From Christensenellales bacterium (GTDB lineage Bacteria > Bacillota > Clostridia > Christensenellales > CAZKXV01), in assembly GCA_050952545.1 (NCBI GenBank), contig JBMNLD010000002.1, forward strand, positions 106,889 to 170,888: a stretch of DNA of 64,000 nucleotides, in the 5' to 3' direction. A program made the position numbers and the translations under genes. Of the stretch, positions 2,481 to 24,260 are shown piece after piece (position 1 is the first letter of the stretch; every line of letters starts with the position of its first letter). The notes below the pieces were generated by a model. It searched no databases, was not told the origin of the DNA, and saw only the letters and a program-made list of their open reading frames with translations.

Positions 2481-2504
2481 TGGTGGGCAATAAGGGACTC
2501 GAAC
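2481..2504 (-). repeat. att-like duplication of the 3' 24 bp of tRNA-Val(CAC)
   Basis: tggtgggcaataagggactcgaac is identical to 24185-24208 (T-loop through CCA of the tRNA). Confidence 0.9.
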
Positions 2505-2653
2505 TGTTGCAAGGCAACAGCTAGCGGCGAAGCCGCGTAACATAATTCGGTGTCCATGATATAAGCTAGACAGCGACAAGCAAAAGGGAGACATAGCAAA
2601 AATACGGACAAAAAGTCCGTATTTGCTATGCGACTATAAGCGCAGTCGTTGTC
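2505..2653 (-). repeat. tRNA-linked ~149-bp multi-hairpin element, full copy
   Basis: Its reverse complement aligns end to end with 37637-37785; 2559-2655 is identical to 24090-24186. Confidence 0.85.
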
Positions 2654-2654
2654 T

Positions 2655-3201
2655 GTGGGAACGGGTCAAATGGTGGACTTCGCCGAAACCGAGCGCATAG
2701 ACTATCACAAAGCGTTGGAACTCGCCCAAGCGGCAAACGACCAAAAGACCGTCGACAAACTGCTCAAAAACGGCGAGCCGCCGTACTACGGCGCAAACGT
2801 CGCGTTGAGAAGCGCCGTCTATTTGAACTATTTGAGCGCGCATATGCAGTCAGATCCCAACATAACAAACCCCGGCTATAACACGCTGCGCGACGTTTTT
2901 TCGTCGGAATACGGCGTCATCGACAAAATCAATTATTTCTTGGGCATAATTAACACTTTCGGGCATGTCTATCAGCAGCTTTACGGCATCAACCTCGCCG
3001 TCGACTGCAAAAAAAATCGATATTCCCGTCTATTTTTTCGAGGGCAGGTACGATATCAACGCGCCCGTTTCGCTCGTCGAGGATTATTTCGCGGTTTTGG
3101 AAGCGCCGCACAAGGAATTGATTTGGTTTGAGCATTCGGGGCACAGCCCGTGGATAAACGAACGGCAAAAATTCGTCGACGAGCTTCTGAAACTGCTTTA
3201 A
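2655..3201 (+). pseudogene. Alpha/beta hydrolase (proline iminopeptidase-like), C-terminal half; 5'-truncated with a +1 frameshift in an A8 run (3009-3016)
   Basis: Starts mid-domain (VGTGQMVD) right at the repeat junction; removing one A joins ORF 2649 to ORF 2965 (DCKKIDIPVYFFEGRYD...FEHSGHSPW, catalytic His motif). Confidence 0.75.
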
Positions 3202-3267
3202 TTGGATTTGATAACGACAAAGAAGAATAGGCAAGATAACGACCAAGCGAAAAACTAAAACGGAATT

Positions 3268-3660
3268 ATGGAAAACAAAAGAAAAAATTTAAGAAAAATT
3301 TTAACGGTTGCGGCGCTTGTTATTTTTGCGTTGCTTCTTTGCGCGTGTGCCGAAAGCGGAACAGTCAACGAAAACAAAACCGAACAAGCGTACACGGCGG
3401 TTTTTGAGGCGGCGACCGCGACAAAAACTCACGGGCTTAATTTGCGGGCGGGCGACAGCCTCTCCGTTGCCGTTTCCTTGGACGGCGGCGACATAAGGTT
3501 GAGCATAGCCGACCCGAGCGGCGTCGAAATTTACGCGGGAAACGCGCTCGTTACGACGTCTTTTACAATCGACGTCCATTCGGACGGCGTTTACACGGTG
3601 ACTTTAACGCTGAAAAAGGCGAGCGGTCAAGTCGGCGTAATCAAATTCCAAAATCAATAA
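3268..3660 (+). CDS. Hypothetical lipoprotein
   Basis: Basic N-terminus, hydrophobic stretch and lipobox-like LLLCAC; beta-rich Ig-like remainder. Confidence 0.65.
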   Translation: MENKRKNLRKILTVAALVIFALLLCACAESGTVNENKTEQAYTAVFEAATATKTHGLNLRAGDSLSVAVSLDGGDIRLSIADPSGVEIYAGNALVTTSFTIDVHSDGVYTVTLTLKKASGQVGVIKFQNQ

Positions 3661-4538
3661 AATTCGTCGATATACGCTTGAATTGTTTGCCTCGTGCCCC
3701 TGTAAGGACCGGGGTTTTCCATTTTATGGCTGACTGTCGCAGTCGCCCACAAAAGCGAATCTTCCAAAGACCGCGTCAGCCTTTCGCCTATGTAGCTTGC
3801 GAACGTCGTGTCGCCGCGCCCGCTTCTGCCGCTTAGGTTGCGCGCTTTTATGGGGCAGGTCGCAAGCGTTTCGCTGTCGTACGCCAAAACCTCGGTGTTG
3901 TGGGTTATGACAACTTCTTTCGCGCCCCAGCAGTTGAAGACGCGCGCCGCCCTCTCGCGGTCGGTGAACCCCGTCAAAATTTCTGCTTCGGCGGCGTCGG
4001 TTTTGAAATAGGTTATGTAAGGCAGCAGCTCTTTCTTCTGCTCCCAGTCGAAAAATTTCATTTCGGTGTTGTCGCCGCCCGCGTGTCTGAGCATGGCTTG
4101 GACGTCCAACGCTACCGCGCCGCGCTTGGACAGTTCGACGATTAACTCGGCGGAAAAGTCGCCGTAAATCAACCCCGCGAGGTGATAGATTTTGCAGTCG
4201 ACGTCGGGAATGTCGTCGATTGTGAAAGGCTCCGCTTGCGAAATGCAGACGCATCTGCGCTTTTCTTTGTCGGCGGTGAAGTACTTGTTTTGAATGGAAG
4301 TGGATTTAGCCGAAGGAATAAAATAAATATCCTCTTTTGGGATAACAAGTTCTGAAAGGCGCTCTTTGTCGCGCTCGGCGAGTTTTGTCACCGCTCCGAC
4401 GCGGTGCCCGCCCGCGAACGCCGCCGCGCTCGAATATATAACGGCGCCGCCCACTTCGATGATTTGGTGGTCCAAGTAGTCGATATTGTAGTCAAGCGAG
4501 ATATGACCGATTGTCAAAATGTCGTATTGTTTTTTCAT
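3654..4538 (-). CDS. PfkB family carbohydrate kinase
   Basis: GHISLD, VGGAVIY, KTDAAEA and SGRGDTTFA (ribokinase-family anion-hole motif). Confidence 0.9.
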   Translation of the reverse strand: MKKQYDILTIGHISLDYNIDYLDHQIIEVGGAVIYSSAAAFAGGHRVGAVTKLAERDKERLSELVIPKEDIYFIPSAKSTSIQNKYFTADKEKRRCVCISQAEPFTIDDIPDVDCKIYHLAGLIYGDFSAELIVELSKRGAVALDVQAMLRHAGGDNTEMKFFDWEQKKELLPYITYFKTDAAEAEILTGFTDRERAARVFNCWGAKEVVITHNTEVLAYDSETLATCPIKARNLSGRSGRGDTTFASYIGERLTRSLEDSLLWATATVSHKMENPGPYRGTRQTIQAYIDEFY

Positions 4539-4540
4539 AA

Positions 4541-5194
4541 TCAATCCTTATATATTTTTCTGCCTAAAAGCGTCAGCAGTTCGTCGGGGCGGTTGGTCGT
4601 GATATTGGCAAGTTCGGGGTGCTTGGAAAGCCTTTCCATTTCCGCCTTTTGGTCGACGACAAAGACGGAAACGGGCAGTTCCTGCTTCTTACATTCAGCC
4701 AAAAATTCCTCGGTGCAAATGGTGAAACGGAGGTTTAGTCCTTTCAAGCGCTCGCATTTAAAACTGTCTATGCGTGCCTTCATTGCCGATACATCGGCGA
4801 GCGTCGGAGTTCCGCGCAGTTTGAAAAAGGATTTGTTGAGATAGACTTCGCCCGCGTATAGGTCCTTGACGTCGTTTTCGCAGACGCTTCCCGTGAATAT
4901 TATGTTAGGCAGAACGCCTATTTTTTGCGCCAAATCGAGCACGGGCTTGACAAGTCCGCGCTGTTTTACGTCGCAGTTGATTTTGAAGCCCCGCTCTTTT
5001 ATGTATTCAAACGCGTGGGATAAGGGAAGGCGCAGCGAGGGAATGAGCGAGGGCAGGTGCGAAAGATAGAGCAGTCCGCCCGCTTTCCATATATCGACCT
5101 CGACGACATCGACGGCATAGCCCGATATATTCTCGAAAAAGCTCTTGCTGTTGCGGTGCGTGCCGAGCGCGCCGCCGTGCGCGGTTACAAGCAT
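4541..5194 (-). CDS. Glycerophosphodiester phosphodiesterase family protein
   Basis: N-terminal VTAHGGA, VVEVDI and C-terminal ITTNRPD; GAGGTG RBS before the ATG at 5194. Confidence 0.8.
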   Translation of the reverse strand: MLVTAHGGALGTHRNSKSFFENISGYAVDVVEVDIWKAGGLLYLSHLPSLIPSLRLPLSHAFEYIKERGFKINCDVKQRGLVKPVLDLAQKIGVLPNIIFTGSVCENDVKDLYAGEVYLNKSFFKLRGTPTLADVSAMKARIDSFKCERLKGLNLRFTICTEEFLAECKKQELPVSVFVVDQKAEMERLSKHPELANITTNRPDELLTLLGRKIYKD

Positions 5195-5478
5195 TTGTTT
5201 CACCTCGGTGTAAGATAACCAAATTATAGCATAAAAATTCCCCGTTTCAAGCACATTATTTTCCGCGTTCCCAAAGATTGGGCTTTCGTTTTGCGCCTTG
5301 CGGCGCGCGCCCGCGCGCGAGATTGGCTGTGTCGACTTTTTTTGAAAAGATAGTCTTTATCGACTTGGGACGCGCGCCCGCGCGCGAAATTTGCTATTGC
5401 AACGGTTATGTTTATGTGTTACCATAAATTAAATATAAATCGTTAAATTTATGTTTAATTCCAATTTTGAGGTTCTCA

Positions 5479-6924
5479 ATGCAAGAAAACGCAACGCCCC
5501 AAATCTCGCTTGATTCTCCGCAAACAAAGAAGTATATTCCAAAAAAAGAACTATGGATGTATTCCGTCGCCGCGCTCGGTCAAGGTATGGTTTACGCGAT
5601 TATGAGCGGATTTATCTCCGATTTTTACATAAACGTAATGAACCTGCCCCTTCTTTTCGTGCTGCTTTTGATGCTCCTTGCGCGAATTTGGGACGCCGTC
5701 AACGACCCGATGATGGGCATGATTGTCGACCGCGTGACGACCAAATGGGGCAAAATGAAGCCCTACGTCATTTTCACCGCCGTTCCCATTCTGCTTTTGA
5801 CGTTTTTTATGTTTTATTCGCCCGACGGATTGACCGTCACCCAAAAAATGATTTACGCGGGCTTTATATACATCGGCTGGGGAATGATTTACACGGCGAG
5901 CGACGTTCCTTTTTGGACGATGCCCAATGTTATGACGGCAAATCCCGCCGAACGAGCGACGACGATAAGCTTGGTCAGAACGCTCAACGGCATAGATTCC
6001 GCCCTTCCCATGCTGATGTTTTTCGTACTCGGGTTTGTCATGCCTATGGTTACCGACGCGACGGGCGTCGAAATAGACAAAAAAATCTATATGACGATGG
6101 CAATCGTCTGCTCGGTGCTTGGCATGGCGCTGTTTGTCAATTCCTATTTCCACGTCAAGGAACGCGTGCTTATCCCCAACAAGCCGCGCAGCAAGGACAA
6201 GAGCGAGCCGTCCACGCTCAAACGCATTTTCACATGCAAGCCGCTGATGATTGTCATAATCATGGGCATTTTGTCCAGCGGAAGGTACATGATGCAGGCT
6301 GCAGCTGTGCACGTCGCAAGATACGCGTTCTATATAGGACCGTCGCTTGAAGGGCTGACCGATGCGGCGCGCACGGCGGCGATAAAGGGCAGTGTTTCCA
6401 CCGTCTCATTGATTTTCACCGTCTGTTCGGCTATCGGCATGTTCGGCTCGATGATTTTTATGCCGCTATTGTACAAAAAGTTCGACTACAAAAAGATAGT
6501 CATCGTGACTTGCTTTGCGGGCTTTGCCGCAAGCATTTTGACGACCGTTATCGGTGCGCTTTCCATTTACACGACGGCAAGCTATCTTGTCTATGTCTGC
6601 ATTCCGTTTATCGTCATACAATGCATTCCGCTGGGCGCGCTCAACATAACCGCCTATGCCATGACGGGCGACAGTTTGGACTATTTGGAATGGAAAACGG
6701 GCTACCGCGACAACGCGCTCGGCTCCGCATGCCAGTCGTTTGTCAACAAGTTCGGAAACGCGATTGCGACTGCCCTCATCGTTTTGATGTATATTTTGAT
6801 TAATTTGAATCCCGAACAAATGCTCAATTCCCAAGTCGTTCAAGCGGCGACCGACCTTGCGACAAACAAGCGGTTTGCTATGTTCAGCTTGGTTTCCGTC
6901 ATACCGGGTTTAAGCCTCGTTTAA
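5479..6924 (+). CDS. MFS/GPH (MelB-like) sugar:cation symporter, probably 3'-truncated by the AT-rich segment
   Basis: RIWDAVNDPMMGMIVDR and KWGKMKPY GPH motifs; multiple TM helices; ends abruptly at VIPGLSLV where composition switches. Confidence 0.85.
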   Translation: MQENATPQISLDSPQTKKYIPKKELWMYSVAALGQGMVYAIMSGFISDFYINVMNLPLLFVLLLMLLARIWDAVNDPMMGMIVDRVTTKWGKMKPYVIFTAVPILLLTFFMFYSPDGLTVTQKMIYAGFIYIGWGMIYTASDVPFWTMPNVMTANPAERATTISLVRTLNGIDSALPMLMFFVLGFVMPMVTDATGVEIDKKIYMTMAIVCSVLGMALFVNSYFHVKERVLIPNKPRSKDKSEPSTLKRIFTCKPLMIVIIMGILSSGRYMMQAAAVHVARYAFYIGPSLEGLTDAARTAAIKGSVSTVSLIFTVCSAIGMFGSMIFMPLLYKKFDYKKIVIVTCFAGFAASILTTVIGALSIYTTASYLVYVCIPFIVIQCIPLGALNITAYAMTGDSLDYLEWKTGYRDNALGSACQSFVNKFGNAIATALIVLMYILINLNPEQMLNSQVVQAATDLATNKRFAMFSLVSVIPGLSLV

Positions 6925-6941
6925 ATCAATATGCAGAAAAG

Positions 6942-7283
6942 ATGCATCTTAAAAAGTTAGATAATTATTTGCAATTTTTTGATGATATTAAAGATGATTA
7001 TGTTCAGGTCGAAGAAGCTAAGCTAATACGAAAAGATATGTTAGATATCGATACTGTTAAACTTTCTAACATAAAAAACGATTTGTTATTTTATTTAGAT
7101 AGTTTTGGAGATATTGATAGTGAGTCATACAATGGATATGGTTCATTGCCTTTAATAGGGATTACTTGGAATAAATACTTATTAGTTGGATTGTGTAGAA
7201 GTTATTTTACCAATGAAATATTAATAAAATATGATGGAAAACAGTATAAAAAAATTACTTATAAGCTGTCTTTAAACCATTGA
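6942..7283 (+). pseudogene. C-terminal fragment of a larger hypothetical protein
   Basis: No RBS; the frame stays open upstream into the MFS junction; AT-rich codon usage. Confidence 0.45.
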
Positions 7284-7298
7284 TTTAAACCTTAAAAT

Positions 7299-7368
7299 AC
7301 ACAATAGTTGAAAAATATTACGAAAATATTGTAAAACTATTGTGTTTTTTCTTTTTGTTGTTTATAAT
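7299..7368 (+). promoter_or_regulatory. Sigma70-type promoter overlapped by an 11-bp inverted repeat (putative operator)
   Basis: TTGTGT(7340-45)-N17-TATAAT(7363-68); arms ACACAATAGTT (7299-7309) and AACTATTGTGT (7335-7345). Confidence 0.6.
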
Positions 7369-7397
7369 ATAAGTGAAATCAATGAGAGGTGTAGGAT

Positions 7398-7625
7398 ATG
7401 GAAAACAAAAAAGATAATTTTAAGCGTATATCTGAAAATAGAGTATCAAAGATTTTGACTTTACTTTCTCAATTAACTAATTTAAGTAATTCATCTTTTT
7501 ACGAATATACTGATGAGGACATAGAGAAGATATTTAATGCTATTGATGAAGAAGCTAAGAAATCAAAAGAAATATTGCTGAAGTCAAATGATAAAAAAAG
7601 AAAGAATAAAAGGTTTGAGTTATAG
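7398..7625 (+). CDS. Small conserved helical protein (putative regulator/adaptor)
   Basis: GAGAGG RBS; FKRISENRV..L..L.NLSN...YEY..EDI.KIF pattern that I recall from small genes heading RM/defence-associated operons. Confidence 0.7.
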   Translation: MENKKDNFKRISENRVSKILTLLSQLTNLSNSSFYEYTDEDIEKIFNAIDEEAKKSKEILLKSNDKKRKNKRFEL

Positions 7626-7637
7626 GAGGTAACAAAT

Positions 7638-9593
7638 ATGTCAAATAATAAGTGGAGATTCCCTGCAAGTAATCATGGTGAGAAAAAAGGTATTAGTAGT
7701 GGTGATACAGAAACATTTAAAAAAGCACCTTTCCAAGCATTTGCAAGAGAAATCTTGCAAAACTCTATTGATGCAAGATCAAGTGATGAAGAGCCAACAA
7801 GAGTAGAGTTTTCTCTTTTCAAAATAAAAACTGATGATATTCCAGGCAAGCAAGAGCTATATGATGCTATAAGACGTTGTAAAGAGTTCTGGTCATATAA
7901 AAAAGATTATGTTGCTGAATATGATTCAATGTTGACAGCACTTAGTGCCAAAGAGATTGTCTGTCTTAGAGTTAGTGATTTCAATACAACTGGATTGATA
8001 GGTGTAGAAACTACTAGACAAGAAAATAATAAATTTTTAGCATTAGCTAAAGGTACTGGTGTTTCTGAAAAAAGTGGAGTCATGGCTGGAGGTTCAAAAG
8101 GTGTTGGTAAAAACGCTGCATTCCTAATGTCATCTTTGCGTACAGTTATTTATTCTACAAAAAGTAATCAAGATATAGATGGTAATTCAGGTAGTTTTGA
8201 AGGATCTATTGGTGTCGCTGAACTAGTCTCTGGTTATGTTGATGATACCATTATTGAAAATAGAGATTATACTCAAGGAACAGGATATTACAGTATGGAC
8301 GACCTAAATGGTGCAATGAACTCCATAATGAATCTTGATCCAAATTTTACTGAGAGAAATAATGAATTTGGAACTGATATTTACATTCTTGGTTTTAACG
8401 ATGAACTTGATTGGGAAAAAGAAGTAATTAATAGTTTGTTAGATTCGTTTATGGTAACCATAGTTCGAGGTGAACTTGAAGTTAATATTAATGGTAATGA
8501 AATCAGTAAAGATACAATTGAAGATCTTGTTTATGACAATTCCATTATTAATAAAGGTAATAGAAGCAATGTTATTTCTCAATATAGACTTATTACTAAT
8601 AAAGATAATAAAGTAGTTCCGTATGATATTGAAACTGAATATGGTATTTGTCAATTATATATCCTTCCTTATGATAAATCTGAAGAAGAATTAGCAACTC
8701 ATAAATGTGCCATGATAAGACACCCATTAATGAAAATCAAAGATGAGTCTCTTGGCTCTAGTTTTAGAGTATCTGCTATGTGTATCATAAATGAAGGTAC
8801 ATTAGGTATTAAACTTAGAGATATTGAAAATGCGCAACATAAAGATTGGGAAGTCAACAGAATAAAAGATGTATATGAGAGAAAAGAAATACAAGGAATT
8901 ATTAATAGTATTAAACAACAAATAAAAGACAATGTTATTGATTGCCTTAAACTTGGTGATAATGAACCATTAGATCCTAATGGTGCTGGAGACTTCTTGC
9001 CAGATGTTGATAATGGTGGTGATTCAAGTTCTGGTGCTAATGGTCAACAAAAACCAATTGAAAATGTATCAATTTCTAAGCCAAAACCTAATAAAGTTAT
9101 TGAAAGAAATACTAATCAAGAAAATGATAATGGTAACGGTCTAGAACCAGATATTGGAGAAGTTGATGATAGTATTGATGGTGATGTTCAACATCCTACT
9201 GGTACAAACGATAAATCTGGTGAAGGAAGACACCCAGGAAGTGAATCTAGTGGCGAGCAAGAAGGTGAAAATATTGTCTTTAAGCGTGCAAAATTATCGG
9301 GTGTTAAGTATAAAGTGATTTCTACTAATAAAAATGAAGGAAGAATCAGAATAATTTTTACTGCACCAATTGATTTTGAAACATGCTATTTGAATATTGC
9401 TTTATTAGATGATGCCAATAATTCTGTTGCTGTAGATATTGAAGAATTGAATTGTAACGGAATTGATATCTATAGTGAAGATAAAAAAGAATATGGTCCA
9501 TTTAAAATTACTCGAAATGAGAAGATTGTTTTGAATGTAAAGACTAATTCAAGTGGTTATTTTGCTAGTGAGGTGAAAGTAATATGCAAGTAA
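7638..9593 (+). CDS. GHKL (HATPase_c/MORC-like) ATPase domain protein with an acidic low-complexity linker
   Basis: Bergerat motifs REILQNSIDA, DFNTTGL and GGSKGVGK; GGAGG RBS; G/D/E/N-rich region near aa 450-545. Confidence 0.8.
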   Translation: MSNNKWRFPASNHGEKKGISSGDTETFKKAPFQAFAREILQNSIDARSSDEEPTRVEFSLFKIKTDDIPGKQELYDAIRRCKEFWSYKKDYVAEYDSMLTALSAKEIVCLRVSDFNTTGLIGVETTRQENNKFLALAKGTGVSEKSGVMAGGSKGVGKNAAFLMSSLRTVIYSTKSNQDIDGNSGSFEGSIGVAELVSGYVDDTIIENRDYTQGTGYYSMDDLNGAMNSIMNLDPNFTERNNEFGTDIYILGFNDELDWEKEVINSLLDSFMVTIVRGELEVNINGNEISKDTIEDLVYDNSIINKGNRSNVISQYRLITNKDNKVVPYDIETEYGICQLYILPYDKSEEELATHKCAMIRHPLMKIKDESLGSSFRVSAMCIINEGTLGIKLRDIENAQHKDWEVNRIKDVYERKEIQGIINSIKQQIKDNVIDCLKLGDNEPLDPNGAGDFLPDVDNGGDSSSGANGQQKPIENVSISKPKPNKVIERNTNQENDNGNGLEPDIGEVDDSIDGDVQHPTGTNDKSGEGRHPGSESSGEQEGENIVFKRAKLSGVKYKVISTNKNEGRIRIIFTAPIDFETCYLNIALLDDANNSVAVDIEELNCNGIDIYSEDKKEYGPFKITRNEKIVLNVKTNSSGYFASEVKVICK

Positions 9594-10498
9594 AGAATAA
9601 AATATTTCCATACCCAGTTTTAAATAATAATAAGTTATATTCAAATTTTCCGGATGCTTCATTTGAAATAGTTTATGAAGCTGAAGAAGATGAATTTGCA
9701 TATATCCTAAAAAACATAAAATTCTCAACAGATAGTAAATTAATTAATGACTTGTTTGATAATCAAAAGATAGATATTAAACTAGTGGTTGAATGCTCTG
9801 ATACAGTCTTTAGAAAAGCTTTTAATATCAGTAAAGAGCCAAAGAGTATCCGACTTTTGAAAAATGACTTTACTGAAAAAGTTGATGTTTCTATGTTTGC
9901 AGTTGCAAAGGAAAACTTTAGAATTTCATCAAACGAATTTGATGAAGACTATCGCGACATAGAATTCGAAATTGAAAAGTATGATATTTTATGTGCAAAT
10001 GATGGCTTCAATGTTAGATTCAGACATGATGAAGCAGAGAATAATTTAGTTAAATCAATTTTTTCAATAATTCCAAGCGATAATATTAACGATGGTACAT
10101 TTGAAGTTAATTGTGAGTTAGGAAAAAAGATTACTATTTCTATATCTGACGCTGATTTTAAAAATATGAATATAGTTAATACTGTTCCAACATATAAAGA
10201 AGTAGTATTTAATATGCTATTAGTTCCTGCATTGATTGAAGGTTTGACTTTATGTTTGAAAACTGTCCAAGAAGGAACTGATGATTTAGATGATATTGGA
10301 AATAAATACGTTTGGTTTAGAAGTATATTAATGTCATATAAACGTTTATACGGAAAAGATATTACAATTGATGAATTTAAGAGTTCATCACCTGTTCTTT
10401 TAGCACAACAATTGTTAGGAAAGCCACTAGGCGCAGCTTTACATAAGCTTGTTGTTGAAACAAATAAAATAGACGAAGGAGGAAATGATAATGAGTAA
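9584..10498 (+). CDS. Hypothetical protein (N-terminal FPYPVL motif)
   Basis: 304-aa ORF overlapping its upstream and downstream genes. Confidence 0.75.
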   Translation: MQVKNKIFPYPVLNNNKLYSNFPDASFEIVYEAEEDEFAYILKNIKFSTDSKLINDLFDNQKIDIKLVVECSDTVFRKAFNISKEPKSIRLLKNDFTEKVDVSMFAVAKENFRISSNEFDEDYRDIEFEIEKYDILCANDGFNVRFRHDEAENNLVKSIFSIIPSDNINDGTFEVNCELGKKITISISDADFKNMNIVNTVPTYKEVVFNMLLVPALIEGLTLCLKTVQEGTDDLDDIGNKYVWFRSILMSYKRLYGKDITIDEFKSSSPVLLAQQLLGKPLGAALHKLVVETNKIDEGGNDNE

Positions 10499-10850
10499 AA
10501 TCAACATTAAAATGCTTTCAGAAGATGCATTAGTATATTTGAAAGAAAACGCTGAGAGTATTGCAAAGAAAATTGCAGAAAATGAAGATAATTCTTGGAT
10601 TAAAAATACCATTCCTCAATCTATACCTCTATTTGTTGAAAAGAAATTACAAATTGAAGATTTTGATTTGTTAGATAATCCGGAATCAGCCGACAAGAAT
10701 ATAGATTTTCAAAACTCTGTAAAAATTTATGAGTCGTTAAAAGAACTTCCTAGATATATTTTATGCGACCAAAGATTCTGGCTTTGGCTTCACTTGGATA
10801 AGTTCTACAAAACAGTTAGAAATATGATGAAGATTAGAGGGAAATATTAA
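10491..10850 (+). pseudogene. DUF6339-like protein, C-terminally truncated
   Basis: KMLSEDALVYLKEN...NSVKIYESLK.LP.....DQRFWLWLH resembles the DUF6339 N-terminal half; stops at ~120 aa, shorter than I recall for the family. Confidence 0.55.
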
Positions 10851-11352
10851 GATCTATTAATTGTAATGGTTCAGAAAGAAGAACTGGAAGAGAAGCTATA
10901 TTCTGGGGAATGGATAATAATATTCCTTTTCCGCAGGCAAATGATATGACAAAGATTATAAAACTTGTTATGGCTGATGAATCTGTGATTAATGATAAGG
11001 CAAAAGCCATGGAATTAATCCATGTAAGTACGACTAGACAAGTAGCATATTATTTCTCTGCACTTCAATTTTTAAAGTATCTAAAGCATGATAAGACATT
11101 TACTGATAGAGCAAATAATTTGATGAAAAATGAAGGTAAGATTATCCTAGATATTTATAATCAGTTATTAAATAATGAGATGTTTGGTAATGCTTATAAG
11201 CAATTTAAAGATTCAAAAAAAGTAAATGTTGAAGTCATTAAAATGAAATAAGAAAAAACAAGCCTAATTTAGCGGACTCAACTGTAAATAGAAGAGTATC
11301 AACAATTAAGGCATGGGTTGAATGGATGTATGGCATTGATGGTCTAATGTAG
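10838..11352 (+). pseudogene. C-terminal remnant of a restriction-endonuclease-associated winged-helix protein (DUF7226-like), frameshifted near 11240
   Basis: IPFPQAND...TRQVAYYFSALQFL, then in another frame STVNRRVSTIKAWVEW*; one added A at attaaaatg joins the two frames. Confidence 0.55.
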
Positions 11353-11373
11353 ACTTTATACATCTTATTTTAC

Positions 11374-11508
11374 AGTAAATAATTGTAGTGATTTTATTCT
11401 TAAAATTACATTTAGTGGAAACTAATGGTATAGGTATGCTAAAACCTGTTGTTTAGGTGAAAAAAATAACATTTACAAATTTAAGGTCAAATAACTATAG
11501 AGTTATTG
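11374..11508. repeat. ~135-bp diverged direct repeat, copy A
   Basis: About 111/135 identical to 23742-23875 by manual alignment; identical blocks gtatgctaaaacctgt and aaggtcaaataactatagagt. Confidence 0.85.
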
Positions 11509-11608
11509 TAGGTTCAGTAAATTGATAAAATAACTCTTTTGTTATATAATTATTCCGATAATCTGAAGTACCAGAAAGTTGAGGAAGGGCTCAAAGGAGG
11601 TACTTGCT

Positions 11609-11839
11609 ATGGATTATCGAAAAGCCATATTAGATAAAGAAGCAACAAGTATTAGACTTAGGTCCCTTAGAATCAAAGCTAATCTAACACATGATAGACT
11701 AGCTGCATTACTTCAACTAAACACACCTCGTGTGATTTATGATTGGGAATGTGCAAAGAAGATGCCTAATGTTGAAAACTTGTATAATCTGGCTCTAATA
11801 TTTAATATGAAAATGGAGGATTTACTTGTAACCAAGTAG
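11609..11839 (+). CDS. XRE-family helix-turn-helix regulator
   Basis: LRSLRIKANLTHDRLAALL...VIYDWE..K.MP...NL..LA..F; AGGAGG RBS. Confidence 0.85.
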   Translation: MDYRKAILDKEATSIRLRSLRIKANLTHDRLAALLQLNTPRVIYDWECAKKMPNVENLYNLALIFNMKMEDLLVTK

Positions 11840-11929
11840 ATCCTTCTTTTTATTTTTGAACTATAGTACATTTTGAAATTTGACACTTCTGTTATAATAA
11901 TGACGAAAACTGTAAATATGTTCTATATA

Positions 11930-11959
11930 TTGAAATAAATTTCAATAATATGATATAAT
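11930..11959 (+). promoter_or_regulatory. Sigma70-type promoter with extended -10
   Basis: TTGAAA(11930-35)-N18-TATAAT(11954-59), with TG at 11951-52. Confidence 0.55.
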
Positions 11960-12144
11960 TATAGTTGGATACAAATGCATGTTCTGAAACTGTGGAGTAA
12001 GAACTTTACCTATATGGAATGTTGGAGCGAATCTTATGGTTGGGATATACCATATGAGGAGTAAACCAATAGTTAAAAGCTAAATTTCAAGAGTGGTATT
12101 GCGTGTCTAAACAAAATAACATGTGAAGAGGATGAATGTTATTG

Positions 12145-12180
12145 AAGTGGCGATAGGCTAATACCTACCGTCACTTTTTT
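12145..12180 (+). terminator. Intrinsic terminator immediately upstream of the helicase operon
   Basis: AAGTGGCGATAGG-CTAATA-CCTACCGTCACTT stem followed by a T-run. Confidence 0.7.
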
Positions 12181-12203
12181 GGTTTTAAGGAGGTGTCAAT
12201 AAC

Positions 12204-13106: not shown

Positions 13107-13147
13107 ATGTTATTGTCAATCCACTAGATATATAGGAGGACAAAAGA

Positions 13148-16100: not shown

Positions 16101-17657
16101 ATTGAGATTAAATCTTCAACGATAGAAGTTCTAAATAAAGAATTACGTACTATTGAAGATAAACAAGCAGAACTAGATAAAGAAATAGATTCATTAAAGC
16201 AACAAATAAAAGTAATTAATGAAAATATTATTGATATTCAAGAAAGAAATGATGTTAAAGATATTCAAGAAGCCAAATATAAGCTTGAGAATGATTTAAT
16301 AAAATTCTTTAAAGATTTTGAAATTGCTGAACCTTATAAGGATGTAGATGAAGGACTAAAGATTATTAAACGTAAATGGTCTGAGCTTGAAGATGATTTC
16401 CAAGCGAAGGAACAAGAAAATAAAGAAAAAATACCTATGTATGAAAAGATCGCAAATTACATCACTAGTGAAGATGTAATTGAAGAAGATAGAAAGGTAT
16501 TTACTAAAGACTTGTTTGAAAATGCTAATGTATTTGGTATTACATGTACATCTAACGATAGATTCAGCGGAAGAAATGTTGATGCATTATCTGAATATAA
16601 TATCGATGAGATTGATATTAAATCCGTTGGTATTGATGTAGTTATTATCGATGAGGTTTCTAAATCAAGTTTTATAGATTTATTGATACCTATTCTTTAT
16701 GGTAAAACAGTTATCCTAGTTGGAGACCATAGACAATTGCCTCCAATGTATGAATTCTCCAAATTAAGAGATGATGATTTTGAAGGATTAGATGAGACAA
16801 TTATTAATAAAGAAATTAATAAAGAGTTTACTAAATTGTATGAAGAGTGTTTCTTCAAAACTCTATTTGAAAGAATACCAGATAGTTATAAAACTATGTT
16901 AGTTCAACAATATAGATGTCATGAACATATTATGAATGTATTTAACCACTTCTATAAAGGCGAATTAAAACTAGGTTTTGCAGGTCAAAACAATAATAAA
17001 CGTCATAATGTTAAATTACTATCAAATGGTAGAAATATTATCGAACCAGATAAACATATTTATTTTGTTGATTGTAAGCAAAATGAAACGCATGAAGCTG
17101 ATTCAACATCTATGTACAATACTGGTGAAGCTAGAGTTGTAGTTGAATTAATCAGAAAAATGAATACATATTTCAAGTCGCATCCAGAACTTGAAAAGCT
17201 AAGCATTGGTGTTATTTGTACATATGGAGACCAAGCTAGAAGAGTAAAAGAATTACTTAAGAGTGAAAAGGTTAAAACAGATGCATTTAAAACAGATGTT
17301 GAAAAAATGATTGTTTCAACTGTCGATGATTTCCAAGGTGATGAAAGAGATATTATCATTTTATCTACAGTTAGAAATCCTGAAAATCCAAAAAGAAGTG
17401 ATCCTGGATTTATCCTAGCTTATCAAAGAATTAATGTTGCTTTATCTAGAGCAAGAAGAATGCTTATTATGGTAGGTAACAGAAAATATCTTGAAGAAAA
17501 AGGTGTGATTGATTTACCAGATGTCTATGGTCGTGTTGGTAAAGAACAAAGAAACTTCAGAGTTTATGAAGAAATCTTAGCTACTATAGAACGCTATGGT
17601 AAAGTAATCGAAGATATTGATGTATTAGATGATAAGGAGGCGAGAATAAATGGATAA
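13148..17657 (+). CDS. Upf1/DNA2-like SF1 helicase (~1500 aa, long coiled coils), split into ORFs 13148-15946 and 15909-17657 by a +1 frameshift at an A5 run (15927-15931)
   Basis: Motifs QGPPGTGKT and SSETHKAIDN in part 1; IIDEVSK, LVGDHRQLPP, QYRCH, TVDDFQGDERD and RINVALSRAR in part 2; removing one A reads EEKLKEIK. Confidence 0.9.
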
Positions 17658-19782
17658 GTTTAAACTAGAAACTTCTATACAATTTCCATTCTTTAAAATG
17701 AATGAACTTGTTACATATTCTGAAGTTAAAAAGCCTAGTGGTGTTGCTTATATTTTACTAGTTCTAATTAGTGAATCTAAGAATAAAAACGATAGATTAT
17801 CCAAAGTATTAGAAAACTTCGGAATACCTAAATCTCTACATTATATTTTCGCTGATAATGTCCAATACTTAATGGAACAAGGAATATTAGAAGAATTTAA
17901 TTTTTATAAAACTGAATTTGATAATTACCTAATTGGTTCATTTCAATTTACTTCAAAAGGTAAAAAGATATTTGCTGAAGAATCTATACCTACAGGTATT
18001 AATAAAGAATTAAAAGTCCCAGTATTTTATAATATTGCAATGAATGAACTATCATTGAAGATGGATAATGATTTAGATCCAAAACCATTAATGGACTGTG
18101 CTATTACTCCTGAATTTATGGATAGATTTAAGAACGAAAAGAATGTTGAAAATTTCTTAAATCTTCAAAAAGGAAAAGGAATAAGTGTTAAAAAAGAAGA
18201 AATCATAACTAATGTAGAACAATTAGATCAAGAAAATTGGATCGGAAAATATGATTGCGATATGAACATTAATGGCGATGATATTGAAATTAAATTTGAT
18301 GAATTGCTATTACAAAAATTCTTTGATGCTAATTACAATCAAAACATGGTTAATTTAGCTATTTCTTATAAAAACAGATTTAAGTTTAAATCATCTTTTA
18401 AAGATAATCTTAAACTAAGTAATTATGGTTTTGATAGAATTGCAGGAATAATTATTCCAAAAGAGATAGATGATGTTTTAAAACAAAAGAATCAATTATT
18501 ACTTACAAAGGGTAATTATAAAACTTCAAATGGTTATATGATTACTAGTTCGGAGTCTATTTCAAAATATGATGATACGATTGAATTTATTCAAGTAGAT
18601 ATGCACGATTCTGTTTATGCATATATTCCAGGCAATTTTAATTTTAACAATAATCTATTTGGAATTATTACAATTCCTCTTGCTTTAAAGATTAAATTGA
18701 CTGAAGAAGAATTGAAAAATGTCATTAAACCTTATGTAGTATCATTATCTACATATAGTGAAGATAATTTTAAAGAATTAGTTAAGGTCACAAATATCAC
18801 TGATGACTTGAAGCTAGCAAAAGAGATTATTGAAGGTTATGTAAATGAAGATGCTGAAAGTAATATTGTTTTATTAAATGAAATGAAGCCATATGCTATA
18901 TCTAATTCAGGTATATCAAATATTTATAGAGAATTGTTAGAAAAGAATTATAGCAATTATATGGATACCATCACTGAAGATAATCTTGATACAGCACTTA
19001 AGATAACTGCTTCAATTCCTAAGTTCTTAAATATTCCAAATAAGGATGTTTTATCAAGAATATTTAAGAATATAAAAGTTAAAAACGAGTTAGAAACTTA
19101 TGAAACATTAGTAAGTAAAGGCTTTGATAAATCACTAGTTGTTTTATATGTTAATCCAGTAATTGAAGCATTAAAGATAAGAAATTCTGAAGAAAAAAGC
19201 ATAATTGATTTAATTAACTATGATGATGCTTTATCAGAAATGAAGAGAATAACTTCTATTAACGATTACAAGAGTTATTTATATGATGAAGAAAAGATTA
19301 ATCATAATGATTTCAAAACAAACTATAATAAAGCATTTAATCTTCAAAAGAATATTGCTGTATTTAGAAGTGGTAATGAAGGATTATTTGCTAATTATGA
19401 TGGGTTCATGAATTTATTCTCAACTATTAATGATGATATTAATTTAGTTGAAGCTGCACTTAAGAATCCTAATAATTTAAAGCCAGAATTAATTGAAAAG
19501 AAAATAGCTAGTGGTGAATATCAATTTGTATTTGTTAATCTTTCTGCAAAATTAGAAACAATTTTAAAAAACAAATATAAATTAGATGGCAAATTATCTG
19601 ATATGTTAAATGACGCAAGATCTAATGGTATAATTGATAAGAAGGTTATTAGTGATTTGCATGATTTTAGAGATAATAGAAATGCATATGTTCATCCTGA
19701 AGATAGAACATCAAATTATAATGCTGATGATTTAAGAAGATGGTCTAAAGAAATCTTTGATTTGGAGGTGGAAGGAAAATGA
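17650..19782 (+). CDS. 710-aa hypothetical protein with a C-terminal HEPN-like motif
   Basis: Overlaps the helicase stop; C-terminal DLHDFRDNRNAYVHP fits the Rx4H HEPN motif. Confidence 0.7.
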   Translation: MDKFKLETSIQFPFFKMNELVTYSEVKKPSGVAYILLVLISESKNKNDRLSKVLENFGIPKSLHYIFADNVQYLMEQGILEEFNFYKTEFDNYLIGSFQFTSKGKKIFAEESIPTGINKELKVPVFYNIAMNELSLKMDNDLDPKPLMDCAITPEFMDRFKNEKNVENFLNLQKGKGISVKKEEIITNVEQLDQENWIGKYDCDMNINGDDIEIKFDELLLQKFFDANYNQNMVNLAISYKNRFKFKSSFKDNLKLSNYGFDRIAGIIIPKEIDDVLKQKNQLLLTKGNYKTSNGYMITSSESISKYDDTIEFIQVDMHDSVYAYIPGNFNFNNNLFGIITIPLALKIKLTEEELKNVIKPYVVSLSTYSEDNFKELVKVTNITDDLKLAKEIIEGYVNEDAESNIVLLNEMKPYAISNSGISNIYRELLEKNYSNYMDTITEDNLDTALKITASIPKFLNIPNKDVLSRIFKNIKVKNELETYETLVSKGFDKSLVVLYVNPVIEALKIRNSEEKSIIDLINYDDALSEMKRITSINDYKSYLYDEEKINHNDFKTNYNKAFNLQKNIAVFRSGNEGLFANYDGFMNLFSTINDDINLVEAALKNPNNLKPELIEKKIASGEYQFVFVNLSAKLETILKNKYKLDGKLSDMLNDARSNGIIDKKVISDLHDFRDNRNAYVHPEDRTSNYNADDLRRWSKEIFDLEVEGK

Positions 19783-20867
19783 GTCAACAAGTAACCGTTG
19801 ATTATCAAGGTGTATCTATTCAAGTACAAGCTAAATGTGACACAGCTGTTCATTCATTGTGTCAAATAGATAAAGTGCTTGATAGAATACATAATACAGC
19901 AGATAAACTTGAAACTGCTAAAGTAAAAGAGTATGAAGCTTATTTGCAAAAATCCAAGGAAACAATCAAAGAAAAGATTGAAGCGTTTAAGAAGACTCTA
20001 GAAAAATACAAAGAAGCTAGGGCTTATTCAGTTAATAATCATCAACCAGATTATCAACAATTCATTAACTTTACTAATAAGGTTCAAGCTGAATCAGAAG
20101 AATTAATTAGAACAGTTAATGAATTAACTGGTTCTAAACTTGCAGTAATAGATCAGATGATTGATGAAGGCTTATTAAATGCTGGTCAGGAAACAACTCA
20201 AGCTATGTTAGATAAATTGCATGGTGTAGTTTCAATCTCAAGTGACATTTTATCCAAGATAAATAACATTGAAGATGTTTCATTAAGAGAACTAGCATAT
20301 AAAGAAATCCTTAAGAACGATAAACTTAGCTTTGATGAAGTAATCACTAAAGCACAAGATGAATATGATATTCTTTTAGGAAAACAAACAAAAAAGGTTA
20401 TTCAAGAATATAAAGAAGAGCTTACTTCTAAAGGTATTACTACAGAAGAATTAGATAAAGCTAAATCTATTGATGAAGCTAATGCTATTGCTAATGAAGC
20501 AATTACTGATGAAACGGTAAGAAAAGAAACTTTAAAAGTTATTATTAAAGCAATCAAAGATAGAGGATTCATTGTTGATACAAAGAAGAATCTTAAGATT
20601 GATAAAGAAAGAAATATTGTTAAATTAGTTGCATTAAAAGCATCTGGACAAATGGCTGAGTTTGAAATTCAACTTAATGGTAAGTTTATGTACCACTTTG
20701 ATGAATATGAAGGCCATGCATGTAAGAAAGATATAGAACCATTCTTAGAAGATTTAAAGAATATCTACGATATCAATATTCTTCATGAAGAAGTAACGTG
20801 GGAAAATCCAGATAAGATTCAAACTCAAAAATATCAATACATAAACAAAAACAAGGGTACTAATTAG
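19779..20867 (+). CDS. Coiled-coil protein with a C-terminal DUF2997-like domain
   Basis: ATGA overlap with the upstream stop; helical N-terminus; C-terminal FDEYEGHACKKDIEPFLEDL. Confidence 0.6.
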   Translation: MSQQVTVDYQGVSIQVQAKCDTAVHSLCQIDKVLDRIHNTADKLETAKVKEYEAYLQKSKETIKEKIEAFKKTLEKYKEARAYSVNNHQPDYQQFINFTNKVQAESEELIRTVNELTGSKLAVIDQMIDEGLLNAGQETTQAMLDKLHGVVSISSDILSKINNIEDVSLRELAYKEILKNDKLSFDEVITKAQDEYDILLGKQTKKVIQEYKEELTSKGITTEELDKAKSIDEANAIANEAITDETVRKETLKVIIKAIKDRGFIVDTKKNLKIDKERNIVKLVALKASGQMAEFEIQLNGKFMYHFDEYEGHACKKDIEPFLEDLKNIYDINILHEEVTWENPDKIQTQKYQYINKNKGTN

Positions 20868-20878
20868 GAGGTAAACAC

Positions 20879-22696
20879 ATGTCTTTACAAAATAGTTTTA
20901 ATAAAATCAGAAGAAATGCTGGAATTAAAAAATGTGTCATGATTGATGGCAATGTTGGTGACGTTTATCTAAATGAAAAGAATAATATCGTTACATTAAG
21001 AGAATATCTTGAAGCAATGTTCAAGGATATGGATTATCAAGACATTGTTTACTGGGATAGAGTTGAAGGTGCAACTGGTGCAATTGATAAGCTAACTTTA
21101 ACTGATGAAGTTGAAGTAGAAGGTGATGCATACGATTTAGGTGATGATGAAGAAGAAACACCAAAAGCACAACAAGGTTTATTTAAATCACCTGCTGAAA
21201 TTTTAAATGTTGTTTATAAGAATGTAATTGATAAAAAGAAGAAAGTTGCTTTTATTATTAACTGGTCAGAATATCTATTTAGTGTTAATGGGTTAAGTGA
21301 TGATGAAAGACAAAATATTACATTATTAGGGAAAGCATTAAAGGATAGAAAAGTTGATTATTTAAATACTGACTGCAATGAAAGTGTTGTTGTCATTATT
21401 TTAAATAAAGCATCTGGATTACCATTATCTTTCTATCAAGGGAATCCTGAAGTTGAAATTGTAACATTACAAAAACCAGATAGAGAAGAAAGAAAACAAA
21501 TGATTCAAAAAATAGAAGATTCATTTGAAGTAAGATTAAAATCTGGTACTAGTTCATTGCTAGATGCTGAAAATATAGATTGTATTGATATGCTTGAAGA
21601 TTTTACTAATCGTGAGATTATTCAATTATCAAGAATGTCTAGAAAAGAAGATAAGATGACTTTTGATAAGTTGTTCTATTTATTTAAATATGGTGAAAAA
21701 GAAAATCCATGGGAAAAATTAGAACAATCTAGAGTTAAAAACATTAAAAAAGAATTATCTGATAGAGTTATAGGTCAAGAAGAAGCGATTGACAAAATAG
21801 AAAAGACTGTTGTTAAAGCATATATGGGTTTAACAGGCCTTCATAAAACTTCATCAAGATCAATGCCAAAAGGTGTATTCTTCTTTGTTGGTCCTACTGG
21901 TGTAGGTAAAACTGAGCTTTCAAAGGCTTTAGCTAAATTCTTATTTGGTGATGAACAAGCTTGTATTAGATTTGATATGTCTGAATATGCTCAAGAGAAT
22001 AGTGATCAAAAATTAATAGGTGCTGCACCTGGATATGTTGGATATGAAGAAGGTGGCCAATTAACAAATGCTATTAAAGAACACCCATTCTCAGTTGTTC
22101 TGTTTGATGAAATTGAAAAGGCTGCAAAACCTAATCCACGTATTCTAGATATATTCTTACAAATTTTGGAAGATGGTCGCTTAACTGATTCTAAAGGTGA
22201 AACTGTATACTTCAGCGACACAATTATAGTATTCACATCTAACTTAGGTGCTAACCAAGTTCAAGCATCATCTGATAAAGAAGGTGTAGCAAAAGAATTT
22301 ATTAAGATTGTAAAAGATTACTTTGATAATGAATTAAAGAGACCAGAATTATTAGGACGTATCGGATACAATAATATCGTTCCATTTAATTTCATTCAAG
22401 ATAGAGATTTCCAAGTTAAGATTTGTAAGAACAAACTAAAACCAGTTATCAGGGGAATAGAAGAAAAATATAAACTTGAATTGGAATTTGAAAAAGAATT
22501 GGAAGCTATCGAATATATCCTAAAAGCTGTAGATTCATCAAAAGGTGGTCGTGATATTTTAAATGCTATCAATGATAGATTATTAGATCCTCTTGCAATG
22601 TTCTTATTTGAAAATAAAGATGAGTTACGTTCTTTAAAAGGAAGTAGAATTATTACAAAGGTAACTAAAGATGGATTCAGCTTTGACTTCGATTAA
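20879..22696 (+). CDS. ClpB/ClpA-like AAA+ ATPase (single intact NBD2-type module, degenerate N-terminal half)
   Basis: GPTGVGKT, RFDMSEY, LIGAAPGYVGYEEGGQLT and VVLFDEIEKA; no second Walker A. Confidence 0.9.
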   Translation: MSLQNSFNKIRRNAGIKKCVMIDGNVGDVYLNEKNNIVTLREYLEAMFKDMDYQDIVYWDRVEGATGAIDKLTLTDEVEVEGDAYDLGDDEEETPKAQQGLFKSPAEILNVVYKNVIDKKKKVAFIINWSEYLFSVNGLSDDERQNITLLGKALKDRKVDYLNTDCNESVVVIILNKASGLPLSFYQGNPEVEIVTLQKPDREERKQMIQKIEDSFEVRLKSGTSSLLDAENIDCIDMLEDFTNREIIQLSRMSRKEDKMTFDKLFYLFKYGEKENPWEKLEQSRVKNIKKELSDRVIGQEEAIDKIEKTVVKAYMGLTGLHKTSSRSMPKGVFFFVGPTGVGKTELSKALAKFLFGDEQACIRFDMSEYAQENSDQKLIGAAPGYVGYEEGGQLTNAIKEHPFSVVLFDEIEKAAKPNPRILDIFLQILEDGRLTDSKGETVYFSDTIIVFTSNLGANQVQASSDKEGVAKEFIKIVKDYFDNELKRPELLGRIGYNNIVPFNFIQDRDFQVKICKNKLKPVIRGIEEKYKLELEFEKELEAIEYILKAVDSSKGGRDILNAINDRLLDPLAMFLFENKDELRSLKGSRIITKVTKDGFSFDFD

Positions 22697-23225
22697 GTTT
22701 AATGTAGCATATATAAAATTATGCACTAAAACTGAAGGTCCGTATAAGAGATGCTGCATTTGGTTTCAAGGATGTAACATCAATTGCAGAGGATGTTGTA
22801 ATAAGAATTTGCAACCATTAGTTCCAAATCATATAGTTACATTAAAAGAACTTATCGATATTGTTAAAGAAGCTAAAGATAAGTTTGATATAGAAGGTAT
22901 AACTCTCAGTGGTGGAGAGCCTTCTTTACAAACTGGTTTAAAATACTTTAATAATGAGATTCGTAAATTAGGATTAGGAATCATAATGTTTTCAGGAAAA
23001 AGCAAAACTTATCTAGATAAAAGTCTAGTTGAATCTGTTGATTTATTAATTGATGGTCCGTTTATTGAAGAACAACTTGATGACAAGAGAGTATTATTAG
23101 GTTCTAAGAATAAGGAACTATCTTTTATTACTGATAGATATAAAAAAGAAGAAGGATACTTCGACAATCCTATATCTATTGAAGAAGTAACAGCAGAAGA
23201 TTATATCTTCATAAATGGGGACTGA
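22671..23225 (+). CDS. NrdG/PFL-activase-like radical SAM (4Fe-4S) protein
   Basis: WFQGCNINCRGC (CxxxCxxC), GITLSGGEP and DLLIDGPF. Confidence 0.9.
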   Translation: MDSALTSIKFNVAYIKLCTKTEGPYKRCCIWFQGCNINCRGCCNKNLQPLVPNHIVTLKELIDIVKEAKDKFDIEGITLSGGEPSLQTGLKYFNNEIRKLGLGIIMFSGKSKTYLDKSLVESVDLLIDGPFIEEQLDDKRVLLGSKNKELSFITDRYKKEEGYFDNPISIEEVTAEDYIFINGD

Positions 23226-23227
23226 TT

Positions 23228-23728
23228 ATGGATAAAAAAAGAATAGAAAGTGAAATGAGAGAATTAGAAATTAAAATTCATTATCATTTTAATGACATAT
23301 CATGGCTTGCTAAAGCTATGGGTTCTATAAAAATACCTGTTCCAGGTCAAGGAAAGAATGGTTCTGAATATTCTAATGAAGGCTTGGCTACTGTTGGTGA
23401 TACTATATTAAAATCAGTTATTGCTGATAAGTTTTATAGAGAAGGAATAAGAACCAAAGGTGAGATTACAATTAAAAAGAGCGGTATAGAAGACAATGCA
23501 ACAATGCATGATGTAATGATCTACGAAGGTTTAATTGATTATTCTTATAACGATTTACATTTCTTCAAAGATCCAAATATTCCTGACCATGAGCAAGTTG
23601 TGCATAAGGCACATGATCCATATATTGAAGCTATGGTTGGAGCTGTGTATTATGATTCAGGAAATTATGACACAACTAAACGCTGGATTCTAAAGTGGTT
23701 ATTACCTCTTTTAGAGAAGTATAAATAG
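23228..23728 (+). CDS. Ribonuclease III-domain protein lacking a dsRBD (Mini-III-like)
   Basis: NEGLATVGDTIL and YIEAMVGAVYYD; only 166 aa. Confidence 0.8.
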   Translation: MDKKRIESEMRELEIKIHYHFNDISWLAKAMGSIKIPVPGQGKNGSEYSNEGLATVGDTILKSVIADKFYREGIRTKGEITIKKSGIEDNATMHDVMIYEGLIDYSYNDLHFFKDPNIPDHEQVVHKAHDPYIEAMVGAVYYDSGNYDTTKRWILKWLLPLLEKYK

Positions 23729-23741
23729 CACCAATTCTAAT

Positions 23742-23875
23742 AGTAAATAATGTTAGTTATTTGTATCTCAAAATGACATTTAATTGAAAGTAATGGAAAA
23801 TGTATGCTAAAACCTGTCGTTTAAGTGAAAATTTTAATTTAACAAATTGAAGGTCAAATAACTATAGAGTGATTG
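23742..23875. repeat. ~135-bp diverged direct repeat, copy B
   Basis: See copy A; begins 14 bp after the RNase III-like stop codon. Confidence 0.85.
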
Positions 23876-23891
23876 ACACTTAAATAGATAG

Positions 23892-23920
23892 AAAGGTAGG
23901 AGTGATTCTTACCTTTTTTC
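23892..23920 (+). terminator. Intrinsic terminator at the end of the AT-rich operon
   Basis: AAAGGTAGGA-GTGAT-TCTTACCTTT followed by T-runs. Confidence 0.65.
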
Positions 23921-24035
23921 TTTTTACAACATAGCTACTATATAGGTCGTTAATTGAAAAGTATTATCTTAAGCAAATTATATTTACTAGATAAATCTAG
24001 TAAAATGGAAGCAATAATAAAGGCGTGGTGGTAAT

Positions 24036-24095
24036 TTGGATAAGAAAGAATACTTAAGTCGATATCATAATTTAATAGAACGAATTGAAATATAA
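24036..24095 (+). pseudogene. 5' stub of a phage-type gene (DUF1492/ArpU-like), cut at the repeat junction
   Basis: TTG start after GGTGGT; reads MDKKEYLSRYHNLIERIE and then enters the repeat at 24090. Confidence 0.3.
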
Positions 24096-24184
24096 GCTAG
24101 ACAGCGACAAGCAAAAGGGAGACATAGCAAAAATACGGACAAAAAGTCCGTATTTGCTATGCGACTATAAGCGCAGTCGTTGTC
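24090..24184 (-). repeat. tRNA-linked multi-hairpin element, tRNA-proximal partial copy
   Basis: 24090-24186 is identical to 2559-2655; abuts the CCA of tRNA-Val. Confidence 0.9.
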
Positions 24185-24260
24185 TGGTGGGCAATAAGGG
24201 ACTCGAACCCCTGACTTCCTCCATGTGACGGAGGCACTCTACCAACTGAGTCAATTGCCC
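24185..24260 (-). tRNA. tRNA-Val(CAC)
   Basis: 76-nt cloverleaf GGGCAATT...CCACCA; anticodon arm CCTCC-GT CAC AT-GGAGG; GTTCGA T-loop. Confidence 0.95.

Follow-up and report, generated by a model that had tools for sequence, protein, structure and literature searches.

How did 21,434 bp of foreign DNA come to lie beside an intact tRNA-Val gene of a Christensenellales bacterium, enclosed by a perfect 97-bp direct repeat and with no integrase gene in the interval? This question was addressed for a stretch of 64,000 nucleotides (contig JBMNLD010000002.1 of assembly GCA_050952545.1, positions 106,889 to 170,888; hereafter the window), in which the 97-bp repeat forms part of a small repetitive unit, designated here as the mini-element, that is flanked by copies of the tRNA-Val attachment (att) core. 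We lean towards an illegitimate, end-joining-type capture of a foreign patchwork inside the mini-element that follows tRNA-Val, without the action of a site-specific recombinase. The patchwork comprises a 4.27-kb chromosomal piece of another bacterium and, fused to it, 17.2 kb (~18.4 kb at the outset) of the accessory region of a temperate phage. The locus most likely illustrates in nature a known class of event, and represents neither a new system nor a dedicated cargo platform.

The sequence at 2559–2655 recurs in direct orientation at 24090–24186 with 97 of 97 positions identical, in agreement with the preliminary description of this DNA, and the two copies are spaced 21,531 bp apart from start to start. 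On the plus strand, the order is att copy, 54 bp, first repeat copy (97a), 21,434 bp, second repeat copy (97b) and tRNA-Val, as follows:

1950–2459, strand not assigned: a tandem array of three 170-bp units, every one of which contains a degenerate core of the tRNA-Val 3' end
2481–2504, minus strand: att copy, identical to the final 24 nt of tRNA-Val (two matches, none expected by chance)
2505–2558, minus strand: distal arm of the mini-element, 54 bp, with helices P3 and P4
2559–2655, minus strand: repeat copy 97a, corresponding to the P1 and P2 domain of the mini-element plus 10 nt
2656–6921, plus strand: segment A, 4.27 kb of another bacterium's core chromosome (from contig identity and Pfam)
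6922–11374, plus strand: segment B1, a phage accessory cassette (from PADLOC; 81–94% identity to contigs L069, L070 and L071)
11375–24089, plus strand: segment B2, a phage accessory module (96.8% identity over 12.7 kb to IMG/VR phage L049/G401)
24090–24186, minus strand: repeat copy 97b, directly 3' of tRNA-Val, with a 2-nt overlap with the terminal CA of the tRNA
24185–24260, minus strand: tRNA-Val(CAC), intact, with tRNA-Ala(GGC) next

The GC content is 48–50% from approximately 2656 to 6921 and 25–32% from there to 24089, with a genome mean of 43.7%. This step, together with the two sources described below, bears out the earlier proposal of a foreign payload of dual origin. In silico excision of 2656–24186 yields tRNA-Val followed by 97 bp, 54 bp and the att copy, a layout that matches the one found after tRNA-Ala(CGC) (37637–37808), as had likewise been predicted, and which also exists as a natural empty allele.

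The arrangement was checked, at contig level, on independent metagenome assemblies found by exact-protein look-ups. Four contigs from three samples were shown to match the window at 99.8–100% identity and to span both repeat junctions as well as the joint between segments A and B:

L034, JGI 3300062814: window 1973–7616
L036, JGI 3300064082: window 2554–7147
L033, SRR31061295: window 2626–10845
L029, JGI 3300062814: window 21515–24216

Short-read contigs cross 97a into segment A with an arm of at least 54 bp attached, and pass from segment B across 97b to tRNA-Val. Single-nucleotide polymorphisms and two homopolymer indels, at 3009 and 15936, distinguish them from the window; at both indels the window carries an extra A, which is indicative of long-read-type errors in its assembly. 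The apparently split SF1 helicase gene (13148–15946 and 15909–17657) is a single gene of 1502 aa in the phage and in contig L042. Because of these differences, and because L033 retains 1.2 kb that is absent from the window, the contigs constitute independent observations. Misassembly, for which the preliminary description had asked for a check, is effectively excluded, and the block is real and polymorphic in nature.

The empty site was found in contig L022, from the same sample as L034 and L029 (JGI 3300062814), and consists of 70 bp of other sequence, the att copy, 54 bp, 97 bp, tRNA-Val and 11 kb of the right flank (99.98% identity). Its leftmost 70 bp differ from the left flank of the window, indicating that it belongs to another strain; comparison across strains reveals both empty and filled alleles. 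Among 31 relatives, and then among 401 genomes of the order, neither a close strain nor a donor genome was found. A further contig (L021:1–365) runs from tRNA-Val(CAC) into sequence with 97% identity to the downstream flank of the genome's second tRNA-Val locus, that of tRNA-Val(GAC) (C3:172225–172741), and reflects either rearrangement involving both tRNA-Val genes or chimerism of the contig.

Segment A encodes the 3' fragment of a hydrolase gene, a 130-aa gene, a PfkB-like kinase, a 217-aa gene and an MFS_2 transporter that lacks its last ~35 aa. It is 99.7–99.9% identical to contigs L031, L032, L035 and L037–L040 (49% GC), in which the gene order is rplS, rnhB, prs, rho, a 394-aa alpha/beta hydrolase gene, the 130-aa gene, the PfkB-like kinase gene, the 217-aa gene and a 516-aa MFS transporter gene, with rho, prs and rnhB thus located upstream of the segment A homology. 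The homology starts inside the hydrolase gene and stops inside the transporter gene: the window retains only the C-terminal ~180 aa of the hydrolase (394 aa in L031), and its transporter copy is cut at about residue 481 (516 aa in L031). As the rho region of the donor is only ~71% identical to that of the host, the donor is another species; sample 3300064362 contains both donor and recipient. The best match of segment A among the 31 relative genomes, and then among the 401 genomes of the order, was 74%.

Segment B appears, on alignment with its relatives, to be one contiguous piece of a phage accessory region. B1 begins at about codon 355 of a 474-aa gene, the tail of which is followed by PDC-M33 A and B, a truncated PDC-M33 C and a methyltransferase remnant. 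Beyond the B1 homology, L069 extends into genes for a late regulator, HNH and terminase; this region, which belongs to a related phage, can be aligned with L049/G401. Relative to three relatives, the window carries a 1.2-kb deletion at 10845/10846, by which the remainder of PDC-M33C was lost together with the N-terminus of a 437-aa DNA methyltransferase. The sequence is still undeleted in L033, a contig of the same host species, indicating that the cargo decayed after capture. Matches to the B1 proteins were obtained in metagenome contigs only, with none in IMG/VR, and a megablast search of segment B against phage and plasmid records returned no match.

The PDC-M33 system of B1 is now decayed; B2 encodes an XRE regulator, a 300-aa gene product, the 1502-aa SF1 helicase, a DUF4145 protein, a 362-aa gene product, a ClpB-like ATPase, a radical SAM enzyme and an RNase III-like protein, so that segment B carries a helicase/DUF4145/ClpB-like/radical-SAM/RNase III module. 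At its 3' end, the initial ~18 codons of the late regulator of the phage (137 aa) are present (24036–24095), which correspond to the phage-like stub of the preliminary description. The matching phage, L049/G401, is a 53.7-kb temperate phage (30.6% GC; 100% complete according to CheckV), in which the B2 module lies just upstream of the late regulator, HNH endonuclease, terminase subunits and portal genes. PHROG matches were obtained for the small and large terminase subunits, portal, HNH and late regulator, consistent with a temperate-phage source of segment B.

G401 starts with tRNA-Leu(CAA) and two large serine recombinase genes, and no copy of the mini-element was found in this complete phage. 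The 97 bp as an attachment arm of the phage was therefore ruled out, and a longer parent bearing an integrase and these arms, which the preliminary description had named as a counter-case, was not found; the phage relative uses its serine recombinases at tRNA-Leu. The host's own islands have a GC content of ~30%, one of them being located at tRNA-Leu(CAA), so that low GC is no pointer to a foreign phage host. The latter island (C1:1–21000; 30% GC) ends at tRNA-Leu(CAA) and encodes large serine recombinases with 55–60% protein identity to those of the phage; serine recombinase genes are generally present at host contig ends. Furthermore, a repeat of ~135 bp brackets the accessory cassettes of G401 in three copies (7069–7201, 17432–17571 and 29804–29937) and occurs in the window at 11374–11525 and 23742–23892, being a feature of the phage and not of the host locus.

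How these pieces were joined can be read from the three joints:

97a/A: mini-element ...GTCTG versus donor ...CTTTG, then TGGGAAC; TG shared (2654–2655)
A/B (6921/6922): donor ...CCTCGTT versus phage relative ...GAAATT, then TAAA; approximately TT shared (6920–6921), as judged against a relative of 94% identity
B/97b: phage ...ATTGAAA versus mini-element ATATAAGC; A shared (24090)

The microhomology amounts to 1–2 nt at all three joints, within the 0–4 nt without site specificity that is expected of non-homologous end joining (NHEJ). Four genes are cut across the three joints, as checked against intact relatives. The earlier statement that genes are interrupted at both repeat junctions proved correct for the hydrolase and the phage late regulator, the latter being the only gene cut at B/97b, where the mini-element side is non-coding. 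Judged by sequence, all three joints are illegitimate, a type that neither homologous nor att-specific recombination can produce.

No joint coincides with an att core. The cores are located at 2481–2504 and 24185–24208 and the foreign DNA at 2656–24089, so that the mini-element separates the two by 151 bp on one side and 95 bp on the other, and the foreign DNA is not bounded by direct repeats of the tRNA 3' end. Segment A adjoins 97a, with 2 nt shared with the core, and segment B adjoins the variable centre of the mini-element; neither is joined through an att core, as accretion would entail. This supports the earlier view that the block did not arise by ordinary att integration. The A/97 joint was also considered as an integrase pseudo-site (CCCACA resembling CCCACCA) and set aside, as an integrase product should keep the core copy of the element, which is lost here.

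Pfam searches of all major open reading frames (ORFs) and PADLOC identified no integrase, transposase or other recombinase in the interval, as had been stated previously, and the ORFs leave no room for one; six-frame searches of the genome with PF00589 and PF07508 gave no match in C2:109–131 kb. Genome-wide, the one intact tyrosine recombinase (359 aa) is encoded away from tRNA genes and may be an Xer-type enzyme, the further recombinases being fragments and several large serine recombinases near contig ends. Conversely, end-joining functions are encoded by the host, namely Ku (165 bits; C3:206398–207165) and, not adjacent to it, a LigD-like protein specified by an 841-aa ORF on C2 near 32.3 kb, which is classed as LigD-like from its ATP-dependent ligase domain.

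The proposed target of the capture belongs to a repeat family. The 97 + 54 bp unit (~150 bp) occurs in seven copies in the 1.83-Mb genome, including full copies after tRNA-Ala(CGC) and after tRNA-Tyr and, elsewhere on C3, two further full and two truncated copies. Every full copy sits between a tRNA 3' end (or its remnant) and a decayed tRNA 3'-end fragment. The mini-element is predicted to fold strongly (z=–5.8), with a consensus structure of four helices and some compensatory changes. The 97-bp repeat corresponds to the first folded domain (closing helix P1 and long hairpin P2) plus 10 nt, and its inner edge falls within the variable centre of the unit. No Rfam family matched in window 1800–2800. 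A conserved 20-mer of the mini-element gave one chance match in the genome-contig collection and none in the metagenome-contig collection, in which the samples of this lineage are evidently missing.

The preliminary description had also suggested that the mini-element acts as a landing pad for cargo. This was not supported: the other six copies in the genome carry no cargo, some being 80–85% similar yet cargo-free, and no other repeat-bracketed island of this kind is present. The 97-bp pair is the only exact direct repeat of at least 40 bp genome-wide that encloses low-GC DNA while itself being situated outside any low-GC island; two other bracketing pairs, of 79 and 664 bp (C3:476–485 kb), are shorter-spaced and located within one such island. 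Neither the other mini-element copies nor other long direct repeats represent further captures in this genome. An exact direct repeat of 314 bp was also observed (C3:82173–82486 and 124028–124341, 41.9 kb apart), each copy of which lies 2–3 kb ahead of a truncated mini-element copy (C3:84024 and C3:127312); this pair could be a large duplication or a bracketed element.

The locus itself is a hot spot, for which the tandem 170-bp units provide the context. In contig L044, from another sample, the sequence diverges directly after the core of the second 170-bp unit (L044:12100–12453), indicating that strains vary at these att-like cores.

Specialised-transducing phages, such as the lambda gal/bio hybrids, carry phage DNA fused to the host chromosome by an illegitimate joint. 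The fusion of segments A and B at 6921/6922 resembles such hybrids; it differs from them in that no att junction is present on the other side and that packaging and structural genes are absent, only an internal accessory region being represented. The hybrid may have originated as phage–host illegitimate recombinant DNA, as carried by a transducing particle, or two fragments may have been ligated in tandem during the capture. The capture would have taken place at a break within the mini-element, with the chromosome-side joints 97 bp apart. This offset may have arisen because the ends were joined to offset breaks, either staggered or on sister chromosomes. Alternatively, an ancestor may have carried two tandem mini-element units, between which the capture deleted 76 bp (the 54-bp arm and 22 nt of core), an option supported by the att-bounded arrays of 170-bp units just upstream at the same locus. 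In either case tRNA-Val would have retained its native 3' flank. The identical joints in independent contigs, one of which has less decayed cargo, point to a single event followed by descent.

A precedent is available in Sinorhizobium meliloti, in which NHEJ has been shown experimentally to insert heterologous fragments at breaks in the genome, among them a tandem of two copies of the same cassette (Dupuy et al. 2019; PMC6379672). The present locus shares with that system the absence of homology or a site-specific enzyme, minimal microhomology, more than one fragment in tandem and a host with Ku and a LigD-like protein. It differs in that the fragments are natural and measure 4 and 17 kb, and in that a 97-bp target duplication is present where the experiments give small deletions at the break; a role for Ku is suggested here by analogy.

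Several observations weigh against this end-joining interpretation. Since simple NHEJ at one break gives small deletions and no long target duplication, the 97-bp duplication necessitates an extra assumption, namely offset breaks or an earlier tandem unit, and a two-unit mini-element array was seen in no contig. Under random breakage, the position of the 97/A joint, 2 nt within the tRNA/core boundary, and the correspondence of the repeat to one folded domain would both be coincidences; there is a small chance that the structure of the mini-element or the att core directs breakage. Finally, as the lone empty-site contig is from another strain, the ancestral allele cannot be told from it.

The main rival is a Campbell-type integration, in which a non-replicating circle of 21,531 bp (one 97-bp copy with segments A and B) entered the resident mini-element by a single RecA-dependent crossover; as the origin of the block this is rather unlikely, with perhaps a quarter of our confidence. 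In well-studied bacteria, 97 bp is enough for RecA-dependent recombination. Identical direct repeats (97/97) that coincide with the shared homology enclose the insert, which is the classic signature of such an event, loop-out would restore the empty site, and empty and filled alleles occur together in one sample. The same arrangement in another strain might have released the circle by loop-out. However, the homology block is edged on both sides by illegitimate joints, the first formation of which (97/A and B/97) is left unexplained, so that this route requires all the end-joining steps in addition to the capture of a 97-bp chromosomal fragment into the circle. Moreover, no circular form was observed, no contig with a B-97-A junction was present among the loci examined, and the similar mini-element copies elsewhere lack cargo. 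The earlier idea of capture by recombination within the mini-element thus stands at most for a later step, as homology alone is insufficient to create the two joints; as a secondary route of loss and regain, Campbell-type recombination is plausible.

A related process, homology-facilitated illegitimate recombination, replaces or deletes recipient DNA and is not known to duplicate it. It resembles the present case in that foreign DNA is fixed by one short-microhomology joint beside a homologous anchor (PMC3240628), and departs from it in requiring a donor that already bears one of the joints.

There is a slim prospect, well below that of the Campbell-type route, that the mini-element functions as a cis-acting shell, the first folded domain of which is a preferred site of breakage or recombination, such that DNA captured inside the shell would come to lie between two intact 24-bp att cores and become an island that any passing cognate integrase could excise and move. 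If true, this route would turn random phage and chromosomal fragments into mobilisable islands. The concepts of cis-mobilizable elements (CIMEs) and of their accretion have been described (PMC5704250), and the mini-element, which is intact in L022, likewise represents an att-flanked shell at a tRNA 3' end that lacks integration genes, with the cargo now located between two 24-bp cores. The locus departs from CIMEs in that an att core was not the entry point of the cargo, that no helper integrase was recognised in the genome, and that the mini-element is only ~150 bp and folds into conserved helices.

Even less probable is an integrase-driven origin, according to which two related att-flanked elements integrated in tandem at tRNA-Val, by accretion as described for CIMEs, and later deletions removed the integrase, one arm and one core. 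The 24-bp att cores do bracket the whole region, and the locus contains arrays of att-bounded remnants that vary between strains at att-like cores. Against this, no core is present between the cargo and the resident mini-element, every cargo boundary cuts genes, segment A is core chromosome of another species, and segment B comes from the interior of a phage that has other recombinases and another attachment site, so that neither segment is a CIME-type element. An assembly artefact, in which foreign sequence, either a contig or a circle, had been inserted into the chromosome by way of a repeat, would fit the homopolymer indels typical of long-read data and the sharply different composition of the payload, and is scarcely credible given that short-read contigs of three other samples cross both repeat junctions and the A/B joint.

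Read as an end-joining capture, the locus provides a natural case in which DNA of another bacterial lineage and of a phage was fixed in a chromosome without an integrase, with both parents identified at 97–99.9% identity. As the host encodes Ku and a LigD-like ligase, it would constitute field evidence for the proposal that end joining aids transfer between distant organisms. The locus further exemplifies how an 'island at a tRNA' can come about without an integrase, and island predictors that rely on a tRNA, a direct repeat and an integrase would misread such a locus. Furthermore, defence-type modules brought by a phage, here PDC-M33 and the helicase/ClpB-like/radical-SAM/RNase III set, can be turned into chromosomal genes that subsequently decay. 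Through the 97-bp duplication the allele is reversible, as the identical repeats would now permit RecA-dependent loss of the block and, in principle, its re-insertion by short homology.

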